Origin: a virus
Lineage: Duplodnaviria > Caudoviricetes
Reading direction: 5' to 3' (one strand)
Length of the DNA: 30,710 nt
IMG/VR virus record: IMGVR_UViG_3300017754_001551
Location: 1 to 30,710 of that record
Part shown: piece by piece, positions 2,592 to 25,231 of the stretch
Numbering within the stretch: position 1 is the first letter of the stretch
Layout of the letters: the number at the start of each line of letters is the position of its first letter
Notes under the pieces: generated by a model
The model's database searches: none
What the model was told of the DNA's origin: nothing
What the model saw: only the letters and a program-made list of their open reading frames with translations
Program-made: the position numbers and the translations under genes

Positions 2592-3560
2592 ATGCTCGGA
2601 AACGAAGGCGCAACCGCCGAAGTTGAGAACGCAGCCGAGGCCGAAGCGCCCCGGACAATGGAAGAAACAATTCGCGAAACCCTGCACAGCATCAGGGACC
2701 GTGGCGACAGCGAGCCTGTAGAGGCCGAGGACGAAGTCCCGGAAACGCAGGCCGAGGCAGAGCCTGAGCCGGAAACGGAATCAGCCCGCCCGGCGCCCAA
2801 CACATGGCGCAAGGATGTGGCTGCGAAATGGGCCACGTTGCCGCCAGAAGTGCAAGCCGAGGTCGAACGCCGAGAGTCCGACTTCCACAAAGGCATCGAG
2901 AAATACAAAGCCGCGGCGCAGTTTCAGGACGACGTTCAGAAAGCCGTGGCGCCGTATGTGCCGACGTTTCGTTCGCTTGGCATATCGCCTGCGGAAGCCA
3001 TTCAAGGCCTGATGTCGACCGATGCGGTTCTGCGCAACGGAACGCCGCATGAAAAATTGGCCACGTTCCAGTCGCTGGCTCAGCAGTACGGCATCGACCT
3101 TGGGCAGGCACAGAGTTTTCAGGGCGCAGATCCACAGGTGTCTGCGCTTCAGCAACAGATTCAGCATCTGCAGAGCTATCTGCAGCAGCAAGAGACCAAG
3201 GGCCAGCAGGCTGAGCAGGCAGCGGTTAACACCGAGATCGCCCGTTTTGCCTCTGATCCAAAGCATGGGCACTTTGATCAGGTTCGAGAGCACATGGCTG
3301 CGCTTCTACAAGCCGGCCTTGCCAAGGACTTGTCCGATGCCTATGCGCAGGCTGTCTACGCCAACCCCACGACCAGAGCCGCTGTTCAACAGCAGCAGGC
3401 CAAGGCGTCGAAAGGGAGCGCGGCACAGGCGGCCAAGGTGGCAAAACAGGCGGCGAGCGTGAATGTGCGCTCAAGACCCGCAATGGCACCTGAAATGGCC
3501 GCCGGCCAAACAATGGACGAAACCATTCGTGCCACCCTGAGACGCCTCAGGGGCGCGTAA
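2592..3560 (+). CDS. Capsid scaffolding protein
   Basis: AAGGAG RBS, acidic N-terminus, PNTWRKD...WATLPPEVQAEV..RE motif and Gln/Ala-rich helices; immediately upstream of the capsid gene. Confidence 0.85.
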   Translation: MLGNEGATAEVENAAEAEAPRTMEETIRETLHSIRDRGDSEPVEAEDEVPETQAEAEPEPETESARPAPNTWRKDVAAKWATLPPEVQAEVERRESDFHKGIEKYKAAAQFQDDVQKAVAPYVPTFRSLGISPAEAIQGLMSTDAVLRNGTPHEKLATFQSLAQQYGIDLGQAQSFQGADPQVSALQQQIQHLQSYLQQQETKGQQAEQAAVNTEIARFASDPKHGHFDQVREHMAALLQAGLAKDLSDAYAQAVYANPTTRAAVQQQQAKASKGSAAQAAKVAKQAASVNVRSRPAMAPEMAAGQTMDETIRATLRRLRGA

Positions 3561-3583
3561 TCAACTTTTTTTAGGAGTTCACC

Positions 3584-4579
3584 ATGCCTTCACCCGGACA
3601 GGGCTACGCTGCTGGTGCGTTCAACGTGTTCAGCGAACTGGTCGCCACGACCTATCGCCTGCACTCGAAGGACGTTGCCGACAACGTGTCCAAACACAAC
3701 GCTCTTTTCCGTCGCTTGACCGAGGCCGGTAAAATCCGCCTTGAAGATGGCGGCCTTTCCATCGTGCAGCCGCTCGAATATGCGGCCAACAGCACCTACA
3801 CCCGGTACTCGGGCTTCGACGTTCTGGCGATCAACGCCGTTGACGTGCTGAGCGCCGCCGAATATCCGTGGCGTCAGGTGGCCGTGAATGTTGCGATTTC
3901 CGGTCTGGAAATGCGCACCAACAGCGGCGAGGCTCGCATCATTAATTTCGTGAAAGCGAAGATTAAGAATGCGCAGAACTCGCTGGCCAACGGCCTGTCG
4001 GTCGACCTGTACAGCGACGGCACTGCTGCCAACCAGATGAACGGTCTGCAGGCGCTTATCGCCGACGCTGGCACCGGCACTGTCGGTGGCATCAACAGCA
4101 GCACCTACAGCTTCTGGCAGAACGTGGTCCAGTCCGCTGGCGCCCCGCTGCAGGGTGGTTCTGCGATTACCCCGAGCGCGTCCACCATCGAGTCGCTGAT
4201 GCTTCCGCTGTGGATTCGCACGACCCGTGGCAATGACACGCCGGACCTGATCGTCATGAGCGACGATTACTTCACGTTCTTCGAGCAGTCCCAGACCAGC
4301 CTCAAGCGCTACACCAGCGACGAGGATGGCCGTGGCGGTATGCTGAGCATGAAGTACAAGACCGCTGACGTCTTCTTCGACAGCTCGGGCGGCATTCCGG
4401 CCGCGCACGCCTACTTCATCAACACCGACTATTTGGATCTGGTGGTTCACCAAGACGCCAACATGGCGATGTTGCCCGAGGTGGAATCCATCAACCAGGA
4501 CGCCATGGTCCGCACGATCATTTTTCAGGGCAACCTTGCCCTGTCGAATCGTTCGCTGCAGGGCGTGATGAAGGCTTAA
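3584..4579 (+). CDS. Major capsid protein (HK97 fold expected)
   Basis: TAGGAG RBS, 331 aa, strongly C-ending codons. Motifs DNVSKHNALF, LYSDGT, NGLQALI and GTVGGI. Follows the scaffold gene. Confidence 0.9.
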   Translation: MPSPGQGYAAGAFNVFSELVATTYRLHSKDVADNVSKHNALFRRLTEAGKIRLEDGGLSIVQPLEYAANSTYTRYSGFDVLAINAVDVLSAAEYPWRQVAVNVAISGLEMRTNSGEARIINFVKAKIKNAQNSLANGLSVDLYSDGTAANQMNGLQALIADAGTGTVGGINSSTYSFWQNVVQSAGAPLQGGSAITPSASTIESLMLPLWIRTTRGNDTPDLIVMSDDYFTFFEQSQTSLKRYTSDEDGRGGMLSMKYKTADVFFDSSGGIPAAHAYFINTDYLDLVVHQDANMAMLPEVESINQDAMVRTIIFQGNLALSNRSLQGVMKA

Positions 4580-17810: not shown

Positions 17811-17991
17811 CCTCGAGCGCCACTGGCGCCGTTTCCGTGGCTTCTACGGCCTCCATCGCGCCGAATGTATCAACCAGCGCGCGTACCAGCTTGGCAAACT
17901 CAGGATCTGTCCGCAGCAGCGTTGCGACTGCGGGCAGCCTCTTGATGCTTTCCCAGGTCTGGCGATCAGCGGACTGATTTGTGCGTTGCAT
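17779..17991 (-). CDS. Hypothetical protein, last gene of the leftward arm
   Basis: 70-aa ORF overlapping the upstream - strand gene; no strong RBS. Confidence 0.5.
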   Translation of the reverse strand: MQRTNQSADRQTWESIKRLPAVATLLRTDPEFAKLVRALVDTFGAMEAVEATETAPVALEVTMPGKGCPR

Positions 17992-18355
17992 AGTTTTGAA
18001 CCAGCCAAACGGTTTGCGAGTGCAGGCCTAACCGTCTCGCAATGCCGGCCTGCGTCAATTCTCGATACTGCAAAAGCAACTCGCATTTTTCATCATCGAG
18101 CGTGCGCAGCTGCTCCGCAATGCGTGCATGGCGCATCGGCAGTTTGTAATGGCCAATCCGTGCCCGCCAAATCGTCACAGTTCCGCAGTGGAGCCGTTTG
18201 GCTAACGCAGCATCGCTGTATTCGTCTCGCAGCCGACGTTTGATTGCGTTGCGCTGGTCAACCATTGCTCGGATCGAGCGAACTGTCTCCGCATCGAGCT
18301 TTGTATTGCCCGGCATCCGCTGTTTGCGCCGACTATTTGTTTCGGAGATAATCAT
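17966..18355 (-). CDS. DNA-binding protein with two HTH-like repeats
   Basis: Start moved to ATG 18355 (AGGAGG RBS); YSDAALAKRLHCGTVTIWRA and LTQAGIARRLGLHSQTVWLV. Confidence 0.7.
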   Translation of the reverse strand: MIISETNSRRKQRMPGNTKLDAETVRSIRAMVDQRNAIKRRLRDEYSDAALAKRLHCGTVTIWRARIGHYKLPMRHARIAEQLRTLDDEKCELLLQYRELTQAGIARRLGLHSQTVWLVQNYATHKSVR

Positions 18356-18379
18356 CAGCGTTCCTCCTGTCCTCTCCCT

Positions 18380-18406
18380 TGCCCGGGCCGTCCCGGGCAT
18401 TTTTTT
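18380..18406 (+). terminator. Intrinsic terminator oriented for + strand transcripts
   Basis: tgcccggg-ccgt-cccgggca perfect 8-bp stem, then TTTTTTT; no U-run on the - strand side. Confidence 0.8.
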
Positions 18407-19076
18407 ATCTGATTCTAGGCAACGGATCGCGACGCTTCGCGAACCATTCCTCGTCTGATTCTCGCTCCCCGCCCAACGGGGTCCATTTGAGTGGCGAGGT
18501 GCTGGGGGCGTCGCGGATGATCGCCTTGGCCACTCTGGCCGACCACTGCGCCCACGTCTCCCCGTCCAGCTTCGGATAGCGGTCGCGCATGAACTGTGGG
18601 CGCCACTTCATCACCGCCATATCAGTCGAGCGCTTCGTTGCCTCCTTCCACTCCTCGATGTGACACGCTCTGCATTGTGGTCGCCCGAAGCCGTCAACGC
18701 CGAAAAACTCGCCGCCGCACTTGCATTTCATCGCCGCAGACGACTCCTGCCGCTTGAGGTCGCCAGATCCCTCGCGCACCTCTGCCTCGAAACGGAACTG
18801 GTTGAGATATGTGCTGACCATTGGCAGCGGCGCCACGAATTTATTTGGCACCCGTCGCGCGTTACGCCTGTTGTTAGCGTGCAGAGCATACCCGTGACGA
18901 ACAGTTGACGAGAACCGGGCCTCGTCCTCCGGGATGCCTTCCTCTCGGCACCACTTCTTGCACGCCTTTTGCCAGGCCTCGAAAGCCTTGCGCTTCGAGC
19001 CCTTCGCCGTGACGTCCATGCGCTCGTCCTGACCGTACACGCTCCAGAATGCGTCGAAAGCGTCGCTATAGACCAT
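18405..19076 (-). CDS. Protein resembling the C-terminal domain of phage replication initiators, plus a Cys cluster
   Basis: Start at ATG 19076 (AGGGGG RBS). FDAFWSVY...KGSKRKAFEAW...PMVSTYLNQFRFE resembles the F.xFW..YP.K..K..A...W / P.TWLN..RW motif; also CKCG...CRAC. Confidence 0.6.
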   Translation of the reverse strand: MVYSDAFDAFWSVYGQDERMDVTAKGSKRKAFEAWQKACKKWCREEGIPEDEARFSSTVRHGYALHANNRRNARRVPNKFVAPLPMVSTYLNQFRFEAEVREGSGDLKRQESSAAMKCKCGGEFFGVDGFGRPQCRACHIEEWKEATKRSTDMAVMKWRPQFMRDRYPKLDGETWAQWSARVAKAIIRDAPSTSPLKWTPLGGERESDEEWFAKRRDPLPRIR

Positions 19077-19365
19077 TGATTGCCCCCTGCAGTTTTTTGC
19101 TTGGATATAGTCGGACAACCCGCCGATCAGTTTCCAGCGGTTTTGCGTCCGCCCAACCGTGCAGCCGCATGTGATTCATTATCCTAATCGCTGTTGATTC
19201 TCCGCAGCTGGCGTCGGCTAGGTAATGCTTGACCGAGGCACGCTTGTCGTTGCGAGTCAGCAGCCAGATCAGGCACACCACGGCATTTGGAATCGACGCT
19301 GGCGGGTCGATCAACTCGGCCACTTGGCGCAACTGTGCCCATGCGTTGCAGACGTTGTTGTTCAT
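19066..19365 (-). CDS. MarR-like winged-helix protein
   Basis: Start at ATG 19365 (GGGGGAAGG RBS); ESTAIRIMNHMRLHGW....DRRVVRLY wing motif. Confidence 0.65.
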   Translation of the reverse strand: MNNNVCNAWAQLRQVAELIDPPASIPNAVVCLIWLLTRNDKRASVKHYLADASCGESTAIRIMNHMRLHGWADAKPLETDRRVVRLYPSKKLQGAINGL

Positions 19366-19482
19366 TCCTTCCCCCTTTCGCGGATTGCCGCGGCGCCTTC
19401 TGACAGTCTCCAAGCCGTGCTTCGGAGGGCATCGACAGGGCTGGTGCTGGGCTAGGCGCCCCCACATGTCGTTGATGTTCAT
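19362..19482 (-). pseudogene. Probable chimeric gene remnant (deletion scar)
   Basis: Frame A gives MNINDMWGRLAQHQP, ATGA-coupled to the upstream gene. A shifted frame gives VDALRSTAWRLSEGAAAIRERGKE*, whose TGA is ATGA-coupled to the downstream gene. Confidence 0.55.
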
Positions 19483-19916
19483 TTGCACAACTCCTGCAGT
19501 TTCCTGAAGTTTTCTGGAGTTATTCCTCCATTCCTGAACCAGCCTCTAACCGTGTTATGCGAAACGCCGATGCGGCGCGAAATCGCCCATATCGAAAGCC
19601 CCAGAGACTCAGCCATTGCTCGAACGACGCCAGGCTCTATTGCTACTGCGGGCCGTCCGCAGTCGTCCGAGGTGTCACGCGGTGGCGGCATCCGCGCCGG
19701 CTGCTCACCGTCGAGGTTCCAGCGCACACGCCAAGCGCGGCGATGGAGCCCCTTTGCCTCAAGCCGGGCGGCCAGCGCCATCGCGACGCGGAACGATTTA
19801 GGATCCGGGAAATGCAGCCGATAGCTAGCGTCGCCCGCGACAGGGCCAGCGTGCGGGTCATACGAGGTACGACCCAGCCCAGACCCTGACGCAGACGGTT
19901 TGTGATGCGCTGGCAT
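19479..19916 (-). CDS. Protein with C-terminal XRE/Cro-type HTH
   Basis: LGLSIWAISRRIGVSHNTVRGWFRNG. Confidence 0.65.
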   Translation of the reverse strand: MPAHHKPSASGSGLGRTSYDPHAGPVAGDASYRLHFPDPKSFRVAMALAARLEAKGLHRRAWRVRWNLDGEQPARMPPPRDTSDDCGRPAVAIEPGVVRAMAESLGLSIWAISRRIGVSHNTVRGWFRNGGITPENFRKLQELCK

Positions 19917-22921: not shown

Positions 22922-23104
22922 CTAGTTCAGTTGCGAATAAAGACGCCCGACGTATTCGAGCGCCCACATGTAGGCCGAGAAAGCAGTCCCGGCGAGCAGC
23001 CATATGACGGCTACCGAGACGATGGCCTCGGCAGCTGTCATGGGCCGTTTGCGCACCGCCATCGGGCGGCGCTGGATGTAACGGTTGGGTCCGTAGTCGT
23101 CCAT
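22922..23104 (-). CDS. Small single-TM early protein (first leftward gene)
   Basis: GGAG RBS; hydrophobic segment AIVSVAVIWLLAGTAFSAYMWAL. Confidence 0.7.
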   Translation of the reverse strand: MDDYGPNRYIQRRPMAVRKRPMTAAEAIVSVAVIWLLAGTAFSAYMWALEYVGRLYSQLN

Positions 23105-23148
23105 TTGCTCTCCAGTGTATTGAGGCGGGATTGCCTGCTACGGGTTAA

Positions 23149-23196
23149 ATGCTATTCCACCGAAAATGGAATTGCAACAGCCTTGATATTTTTTTT
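23149..23196 (-). promoter_or_regulatory. Leftward sigma70-type promoter with UP-like A tract and palindromic spacer
   Basis: On the - strand: A8 tract, then TTGCAA (23177-23172), 17 nt, TAGCAT (23154-23149). Inverted repeat attcca-N7-tggaat at 23154-23172. Confidence 0.75.
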
Positions 23197-23209
23197 ATTG
23201 CAGTATCTG

Positions 23210-23238
23210 TTGCGGGCTGCTTGGCCAGTTGCTATAAG
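23210..23238 (+). promoter_or_regulatory. Rightward sigma70-type promoter with extended -10
   Basis: TTGCGG (23210-15), 17 nt, TATAAG (23233-38) preceded by TGc; predicted start about 23245. Confidence 0.6.
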
Positions 23239-23244
23239 GGTTCC

Positions 23245-23477
23245 GGGCGATGCGGAACGTCGGTGGTCGCCTAGGGTTTCAACCTCGATACACGAGCAGG
23301 CCAGATCGAGGGCGGTGGGCTGAGTCTAGCGCCGGGTGGTAGTCGGGAAACCGATGCAAGGCTGGACAGCGCGATGCGACGGATCGGCTCCGATGGGCAG
23401 GTTCTCGGGCGCAGGCGAAACTGTAGGGAAACTTACGGTATAGGCTGCGCTCGCTCAGGATCTCACCAATGGGCAGG
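23245..23477 (+). ncRNA. Candidate structured non-coding RNA (~230 nt), family unassigned
   Basis: No credible ORF; at least seven predicted helices, including two GAAA tetraloops and a long-range closing stem (see findings). Confidence 0.65.
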
Positions 23478-23504
23478 GGTTAAGAGAGAACATCTGGGGA
23501 TAAC

Positions 23505-23756
23505 ATGGATACGGTAGAGGATCAGAAAAAACGCCGGCAGCGGCCATTGCACGCCAGCCCTGAGCGGGCCTTGCAATACTGGGTCGACGTTGTCGGTATG
23601 AAGCAAACAGACATCTGCAGGGCAGCAGGCATTCGCCCGCCGAAACTCAACGACATGCTGCACGGTCGCCGCCCATTCGATGACCAGCTGCTTGACTGGT
23701 TAGGGTTTGAACGAGTCGTAATTTACCGACGCAAAAGGAGTCCCCCCGATGCCTAA
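23505..23756 (+). CDS. Cro-like HTH regulator
   Basis: GGGGA RBS; GMKQTDICRAAGIRPPKLNDMLHGRRP...LLDWLGFERVVIYRRK. Confidence 0.75.
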   Translation: MDTVEDQKKRRQRPLHASPERALQYWVDVVGMKQTDICRAAGIRPPKLNDMLHGRRPFDDQLLDWLGFERVVIYRRKRSPPDA

Positions 23757-24705: not shown

Positions 24706-24884
24706 AAAACCGCGAGATGCACGACGTGCTGGCGTTTGTGATGGCGCAGCTGCGCACGGAAATCGAATCGGCTGACAAACAGGAGAGCAGGACCGCATGG
24801 TTGAACAACTCGCTGTTGCATTTGATCGAGGCCAGGCACGCCTTGGACCGCGCAGGAGCGCAAACGTGGGCACGAGAGAGCTAG
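24702..24884 (+). CDS. Hypothetical small helical protein
   Basis: GTGA-coupled to rusA with a GGGGG RBS; 60 aa. Confidence 0.6.
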   Translation: MKNREMHDVLAFVMAQLRTEIESADKQESRTAWLNNSLLHLIEARHALDRAGAQTWARES

Positions 24885-25231
24885 AGCGCGGCCATGGGCG
24901 CCTACGGAACTGGGCCGACTGGGCACTGGCGTACAGCGCACGCACCGGGTATCCGCAGGCCAGCGCCTTCGCGAGACTGTACCGGCCAGAGGCTGGAGAC
25001 GTCTGGGACGGCATCGAGCCCGACGAGGCCAGAACCGTGGCCGACGAGTCCGATGCGGAACAGGTCGAGCGGTTTGTGCGCAGGTTGCCACTGGCGAACC
25101 GCCGGGTCGTCATGTCGTTCTACATCGGCCGGGAGTCGCCTGTGGTAGCCGCTCGCCGATTCGGCCATTCCCGGGAGCGTTTCTACATCCTGCTCGATGA
25201 AGCTGCGGCTTGGTGCGGCGAGGTGACGTGA
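24866..25231 (+). CDS. Antiterminator Q-like late-gene regulator
   Basis: AGGAG RBS before GTG 24866; RLRNWADW N-terminus and C-terminal HTH-like AARRFGHSRERFYILLDEA; directly upstream of a promoter-terminator pair and the terminase genes. Confidence 0.65.
   Translation: MGTRELERGHGRLRNWADWALAYSARTGYPQASAFARLYRPEAGDVWDGIEPDEARTVADESDAEQVERFVRRLPLANRRVVMSFYIGRESPVVAARRFGHSRERFYILLDEAAAWCGEVT

Follow-up and report, generated by a model that had tools for sequence, protein, structure and literature searches.

The window analysed here, the whole stretch of 30,710 nucleotides, makes up a phage record of 30.7 kb that is complete and carries direct repeats at its termini. PHROG matches identify terminase, portal, capsid and tail genes running rightward and Erf, exonuclease and SSB genes running leftward, and the element described here sits in the divergent intergenic gap at 23104-23505. 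A first-pass annotation, made from the sequence alone, had proposed that this gap holds a large structured non-coding RNA behind its own promoter, possibly acting in replication. The stems that it listed and its candidate sigma-70 promoter (TTGCGG-17-TATAAG, 23210-23238, + strand) are all found where it placed them. Similar hexamers occur at the matching place in two homologues (L168 and L338); the window's own hexamers score below the threshold of a consensus promoter scan and are unlisted there. One close homologue carries TTTACA-17-TACTGT at the corresponding place, and promoter-like hexamers lie directly ahead of the first hairpin, P1, in the clade of the window. The first gene downstream encodes an 83-aa HTH-like protein (23505-23756, + strand; phrog_1468, E = 3.2e-4) and is not kept beside the element across the family. 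Further on, before the terminase genes, lies a 144-aa ORF (24797-25231) whose sole PHROG match is unnamed and which we take to resemble a Q-type antiterminator.

Searched against Rfam, the whole window gives no match at the gathering thresholds and, at E ≤ 10, two chance matches, both outside the element. Homologues were collected by pattern: the neighbouring Erf gene together with one pattern yielded three close homologues of the window element, and a pattern drawn from the 3′ part of the close homologues yielded 40 viral loci. A second GCA, which the pattern did not request, is present in 26 of 26 distinct rows (window included) and in none of 14 matches from bacterial genomes; none of those 14 has the second repeat, and they served as a chance control. 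A tighter pattern returned at least 119 loci among an estimated 290. The family comprises 160 loci, which reduce to 111 distinct sequences and to 72 clusters at 92%: 34 of the long type, to which the window belongs, 35 of a short type and 3 others. The element is present as a single copy in all 25 records checked. Pattern scans with too few fixed bases returned chance matches, family members making up 0 of 47, 0 of 119 and 3 of 74 loci, and a metagenome scan returned one member among 120, identical to the window element. L693, a chance match, was left out of the repeat counts, and L578 out of the helix and mismatch counts. The latter (G002:6122-6208 and upstream) comes from a genome that is 97% complete and has lost the whole interval from P1 to repeat A, by natural deletion or misassembly. 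By blastn, the window element finds nothing meaningful among named phages, and a long-type query has no match among phages or plasmids; the short type with both repeats was found by blastn, not by pattern, in the cultured Acidovorax phage AP1 and in a Burkholderia megaplasmid.

The first-pass annotation could assign no named family, but the element is assignable through sister loci that match RF02932 (Betaproteobacteria-1). This model, which reportedly comes from Weinberg et al. 2017, is matched by 12 of 20 family loci tested, all of the short type, at 76–103 bits; the window and the other long-type loci fall below its gathering threshold (49.4 bits), and none of the long-type loci among the 20 matches. 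Among 151 genomes sampled from a single order, one contains RF02932. The crossing helix pair described below and the whole 3′ repeat-hairpin-repeat domain are common to the window and the short-type loci, and a third-domain helix behind a conserved GG(G)CGAA-like linker is present. Both first hairpins occur in the window and the long type, but the conserved P1 and P2 loops differ. The Rfam model stops just short of the shared 3′ domain, before repeat A, and leaves helix A undrawn. The window element is thus the long sister of RF02932, and its 3′ repeat domain lies beyond what that model covers. Short-type loci (e.g., L522, L525, and L597) have an additional pseudoknot, formed where the second hairpin's loop pairs with the segment that follows helix A (alignment columns 98-145); it too is missing from the Rfam drawing. 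Our literature searches found no function for RF02932, and 'Betaproteobacteria-1' retrieved unrelated papers only. Five motifs have no match in the six files searched from the supplement of PMC10690425, and the family may be among the 10,000 candidates of that study.

The + strand of 23240-23485 folds better than its dinucleotide shuffles (z = −2.61; 1 of 200 shuffles as good), whereas the − strand does no better than its own (z = +0.80). Helix support was counted on motif-anchored alignments of 33 long-type clusters against 2000 shuffles that take no account of relatedness; some of the invariant columns are fixed by the anchors. P1 (23245-51/23266-72, + strand), with a conserved 16-nt loop, is paired in 189 of 198 cells (shuffle maximum 142), and P2 (23283-89/23305-11, + strand), whose conserved loop contains GAGC at 23294-97, in 197 of 198 (maximum 180). 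Helix A (23313-16/23331-34) is paired in all 132 cells (maximum 111) and helix B (23324-30/23361-67) in all 231 (maximum 196). Across P1, P2, A, and B, up to 19 clusters per pair have both sides changed. All four helices covary, and A and B cross to form a pseudoknot (23313-23367, + strand) that was absent from the first-pass annotation; short-type loci show covariation of the crossing pair as well. Helices A and B each retain one T-G pair in 31 of 33 clusters, and this sets the strand as +. The element combines this tight pseudoknot with many invariant unpaired nucleotides.

The covariation upholds three of the stems first listed (P1, P2, and what is now helix B), each with compensatory changes. 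The hairpin between the repeats (23407-14/23445-52, + strand) and its inner stem (23420-39) are likewise supported, by RNAalifold pairs with compensatory changes and by the MFE fold. Two other stems fall away on comparison, the atcg/cgat stem at 23383-94 being fully paired in 2 of 33 long-type clusters and the ctgag/ctcag part of the long-range helix in 4 of 33. Of the two GNRA loops, that of the 23420-39 hairpin is lost in homologues, and that of the optional hairpin 23342-55, within the pseudoknot, is retained in L168, L169, and L338. A suggested kiss between the P2-loop GAGC and GCTC at 23387-90 has both sides nearly invariant and hence gives no covariation signal. A conserved protein-coding ORF was considered as the explanation of the element and rejected: no frame is open in more than 12 of the 33 long-type clusters, and the lengths of the core are spread over all three phases (11/14/8). 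In sum, fold and covariation support well the proposal of a conserved, strand-specific, multi-helix non-coding element.

The last hairpin is flanked by a degenerate direct repeat of ~30 nt, the other feature that the first-pass annotation did not contain. Repeat A (23367-23401, + strand) has its core at 23390-401 and repeat B (23445-23477, + strand) at 23466-77, each core following a GGATC in the window (23381-85 and 23458-62, respectively). The two copies co-vary by identity. The variable core 4-mer is the same in A and B in 57 of 71 clusters, against a mean of 13.7 and a maximum of 25 over 10,000 shuffles. Position by position, 63, 66, 69, and 70 of the 71 clusters agree (shuffled means 48.6, 53.7, 35.5, and 46.8), the last two of the four positions being forced to purine by the search pattern. 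Columns upstream of the core also covary by identity between the repeats. On trees built from the 5′ domain, the types of repeat show a scattered distribution (21 changes against 22.8 shuffled in the long type, 17 against 19.3 in the short type), and both copies therefore change often and together. Among elements fetched by a neighbouring protein, 3 of 11 distinct 3′ domains (L779, L756, and L775) co-change even at the GCA that the pattern fixes, and two more differ by offset. We note that the window has a second 11-nt direct repeat (23434-23444/23510-23520) with the same 76-nt spacing, which extends into the next gene and is accompanied by a third GGATC at 23519-23; it is absent from L168 and is probably due to chance.

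Where the two copies differ, the mismatches run mostly one way. In the core, 70 clusters give 18 cases of G in A facing A in B, 3 of the reverse and 12 others; in the upstream block, the 33 long-type clusters give 14, 0, and 5, respectively. With both blocks pooled, the upstream copy has G against A 32 times and the reverse occurs 3 times, with the caveat that clusters are not independent and that base composition or shared ancestry could contribute. A duplex-energy comparison of the repeats restates this mismatch count and is not independent of it. An A of copy B is faced by a T on the opposite strand, with which a G of copy A can form a wobble pair; the reverse combination creates an A-C clash. 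The one-way mismatches thus suggest that the partner of repeat A is the strand complementary to B, be it template DNA or an antisense RNA. No complement of the repeat 8-mer exists anywhere on the + strand of the window, and mutual information finds no internal pairing partner for the variable repeat columns of long-type elements; the short type has a single column that pairs with a repeat position, on the strength of 4 variant rows. The tail of the upstream terminator was tried as a partner of the repeats and rejected, the match being confined to one clade and the same tail preceding the X elements described below. The 40 nt after repeat B have an AT content of 65.7%, against 51.3% for the loci as a whole (n = 57), a background that includes overlapping genes; the window's own sequence after repeat B is not AT-rich.

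The missing primase and helicase had been used to argue for a replication role. None is found among the 45 window ORFs scanned against PHROG, and a DnaB-family profile search is also blank, but the argument carries little weight, a primase-helicase being encoded in 4 of the 26 carrier genomes. In 19 further genomes, the commonest layout is a cro-like gene, a leader, the element and a 114–124-aa protein whose similarity to initiator profiles is confined to their C-terminal part (phrog_270 positions 176-258). Among four longer relatives of this protein, one has an N-terminal DUF1376 and one an HTH_36. The window contains a 223-aa ORF (18405-19076, − strand) that is similar, over its first ~105 residues, to the C-terminal domain of lambda-O-like initiators (phrog_270 positions 170-291, E = 3.3e-4), with no N-terminal origin-binding domain ahead of the match and no tandem iteron array at 17900-19600. 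Profile–profile comparison of this ORF with the stand-alone C-terminal proteins gives 73% and E = 3.1e-5, and its L169 orthologue matches phrog_270 at 6.6e-9; for the window's own copy, the C-terminal-initiator assignment is weak, and the ORF lies 4.3 kb from the element. A C-terminal-only initiator is present in 17 of 26 carrier genomes (15 by profile search, plus G007 and, weakly, the window); the others comprise 2 with a full-length initiator, the 4 with primase-helicase and 3 in which no initiator was found. A structure search with a model of the stand-alone domain returned nothing above Z 4.6 (SPP1 G39P, at Z 4.5, is within noise), a sequence search of the PDB returned nothing, and an Atlas search gave unnamed viral clusters only.

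The position of the element is not fixed. Copies are found after TerL, between the scaffold and capsid genes, and before primase-helicase, DUF1376 or RusA genes, so that some stand in late operons, including those of both full-length-initiator genomes among the 26. Full-length initiators occur in at least four carriers (G008, G021, L543, and L553); in L543 and L553, which are outside the 26-genome set, a DUF1376 initiator stands directly behind the element. The N- and C-terminal domains of the L553 protein (3110-3715), encoded behind the element and an HNH gene, abut with little linker. In Acidovorax phage AP1, the short type directly follows the helicase and primase genes. The Burkholderia megaplasmid copy (L816:3990-4190, NZ_AP022319.1), of the short type with both repeats, lies among metabolic genes, and the record has two places. 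Five consecutive T, mostly in terminator-like tails, occur within 60 nt upstream of the element in 31 of 34 long-type clusters.

We also fetched 80 loci by the stand-alone C-terminal protein (the half-initiator) alone; the fetch is biased toward the carriers' clade because its query alignment was built from carriers. At most 63 open codons precede the half-gene in all of these loci, and in one the frame runs off the locus. The 73 loci with at least 400 nt upstream divide into 26 with this element, 35 with a second, unrelated element (X), 3 with a third, likewise unrelated (Y) and 9 with none; the slot is thus filled by one of three elements in 64 of 73 loci, and no locus has two. Counted by cluster, 12 of 31 have this element. 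Five loci with a full-length initiator, among 160 picked by two other genes, have no element in the fetched flank, a small control. The half-proteins of L735 and L737 are 100% identical and accompany different elements, and the protein therefore appears not to read the element sequence. Element X (L735, L755, L762, L774, L782, and others) is a conserved, structured stretch of ~190 nt, about 50-330 nt upstream of the half-initiator at 2501, with covarying helices of its own that likely include a pseudoknot. Element Y (L785, L795, and L801) is longer and GC-rich, about 50-430 nt upstream of the half-initiator, and is represented by two distinct sequences; at its 3′ end a direct repeat flanks a long hairpin. 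Just upstream, carriers of this element, X, and Y alike (L523, L526, L528, L544, L755, and others) share a conserved hairpin in the leader that has a large loop and a T-run. Rfam has no match for X, Y or this leader hairpin.

From its structure, concerted repeats, G-over-A bias, single copy and frequent place beside a C-terminal-only initiator gene, we infer an origin function for the element. Our leading explanation, to which we give a little less than an even chance, is that the element is transcribed into a pseudoknotted RNA whose upstream repeat pairs with the template strand at the position of the downstream one, and that this pairing opens the origin from which the phage replicates. The 5′ pseudoknot domain would present repeat A, the putative guide, and the hairpin 23407-14/23445-52 would tie up the 5′ portion of repeat B as present in the RNA, repeat B in the DNA being the putative target and opening site. 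Behind the passing RNA polymerase, repeat A could then replace the RNA's repeat-B copy on the template, leaving a persistent R-loop. That R-loop might prime synthesis or expose a strand for loading of the host helicase, aided by the truncated initiator, and the RNA would stand in for the iterons and the origin-binding domain that the phage's initiator appears to lack. The replication role gains new indirect support from the usual place of the element, which is the lambdoid origin site adjoining a C-terminal-only initiator gene. Counting against this reading are the full-length initiators of at least four carriers, the primase-helicase of 4 of 26 and the 3 of 26 without an initiator found. The late-operon and megaplasmid copies, which it does not explain, and the distance and weak match of the window ORF count against it too, as does the slot after cro, which in lambdoid phages also houses transcription-control elements. 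More tentatively, and as a possibility that we would not bet on, small lambdoid phages may have swapped the protein-DNA half of their origin for interchangeable RNA modules, at least three unrelated folds occupying the slot, in which an internal guide captures the template and the stand-alone C-terminal domain of the initiator takes over.

Two known origins frame the RNA-opened origin proposed here. The rG stretch of the ColE1 RNA is located far upstream in the transcript. It pairs with a dC stretch of the template, and the origin is opened by the persistent RNA-DNA hybrid, as described in the part of PMC4412123 consulted. The proposed logic is alike, a structured segment of the transcript pairing with the template to leave a persistent hybrid (PMC4412123 and PMC5043065, each in the part consulted), of which the direction of the wobbles is an indirect sign in the element. 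However, RNA II is 550 nt long and uses a G/C run, whereas the element is about 235 nt and uses a mixed-sequence, co-varying repeat; the element lies in a phage beside a half-initiator, no equivalent of RNA I is seen, and the window has no Rfam match for RNA I/RNA II homology. Lambda has its origin within the O gene, which stands behind cro; the origin contains iterons and a tract rich in AT, and it depends on transcription (the same part of PMC5043065). The family shares the slot behind cro, keeps the initiator C-terminal domain and has an AT-rich tract downstream. In contrast to lambda, the N-terminal DNA-binding domain and the iteron array are missing in most carriers, a structured non-coding element taking their place; in the window, the match is to the C-terminal part of phrog_270 only. 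ARRPOF, GEBRO and PAGEV, to which the element had been likened, are described in PMC5737381 as structured, replicon-linked motifs of 223–349 nt, possibly RNA or single-stranded DNA, and ARRPOF is described in PMC12990946 as multi-pseudoknotted. These motifs are plasmid-borne, whereas the long-type query found no plasmid match, and their Rfam models do not match the element. Literature searches for phage RNA origins returned nothing or general reviews; the parts seen of bioRxiv 2026.10.21.760802 hold nothing relevant to the element, and those of bioRxiv 2026.09.15.751765 no term matches.

The alternative that survives best, though we consider it unlikely, is cis-acting transcription control in a leader, in the form of a put-like antiterminator, a pause or attenuator, or a target of an antisense RNA complementary to repeat B, with no origin. 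The element heads gene blocks and follows a five-T run in most long-type clusters, and the late-operon copies fit such a role. However, the terminator-like site precedes the element and does not follow it, and transcription control leaves the absent origin-binding half of the neighbouring initiator unexplained. The antisense variant would produce the same G/A bias, in that an RNA matching B also binds A through G-U wobbles. It has a precedent in the P1/P7 c4 and P4 CI antisense RNAs, which occupy a phage leader position and have two repeated target sites and a defining complementary loop, so that one antisense RNA has two targets. The element shares the leader position and the two repeated sites, but the defining complementary loop is absent from its transcript, the long type has no complementary covarying columns, and the C4 model has no Rfam match in the window. 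Nor is the window's 8-mer complemented anywhere on the + strand of the genome.

A trans-acting or catalytic RNA, in which the pseudoknot core docks repeat A and then B for cleavage, ligation or circularisation, or in which the RNA dimerises or binds one protein at both repeats, seems to us distinctly doubtful. The invariant unpaired nucleotides and tight pseudoknot would suit it, as would a copy number that stays at one as genome position varies, and pairing is possible between the GTGC-like part of either repeat and the middle hairpin's 5′ strand. Against this, the long type has no internal guide to the variable 4-mer and the short type just the one column on 4 variant rows, 20 genomes contain no carrier-specific protein family, and the one-way G/A bias would be unexpected for protein binding at both repeats. 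Rfam places no known self-cleaving or self-splicing ribozyme family, a possibility raised at the outset, in the window.

We regard as improbable a + strand that acts as folded single-stranded DNA, with no role for RNA, as a priming or helicase-loading signal or through a slipped-strand structure between the repeats. Covariation is compatible with it, being unable to tell single-stranded DNA from RNA (PMC5737381, in the part consulted); G-T wobbles would yield the same strand bias, and the origin-slot context fits equally well. However, a slipped duplex pairs A with the complement of B and B with the complement of A together, and therefore favours no mismatch direction, and both the promoter-like hexamers just ahead of P1 in the window's clade and the GNRA loops kept by the optional hairpin in three homologues argue for RNA. 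It is very improbable that the RNA structure is functional and the repeat identity only an incidental result of gene conversion, or of slippage on the template at the hairpin: the repeats do change fast and jointly, and the deletion in L578 implies that rearrangement or misassembly occurs here, but fixed differences persist between identical blocks and the mismatches are directional.

The orphan Rfam motif RF02932 gains the 3′ half that it lacked, together with a sister form and a function that can be put to the test. The repeat pair provides a built-in compensatory test with a predicted direction, and elements X and Y offer natural swaps. If the origin-opening explanation is true, an RNA replaces the origin-binding domain of a phage initiator, which would amount to RNA-guided origin opening in cis, a mechanism of which our literature searches found no description, and it would bear on the workings of replicon-linked RNAs such as ARRPOF and PAGEV.
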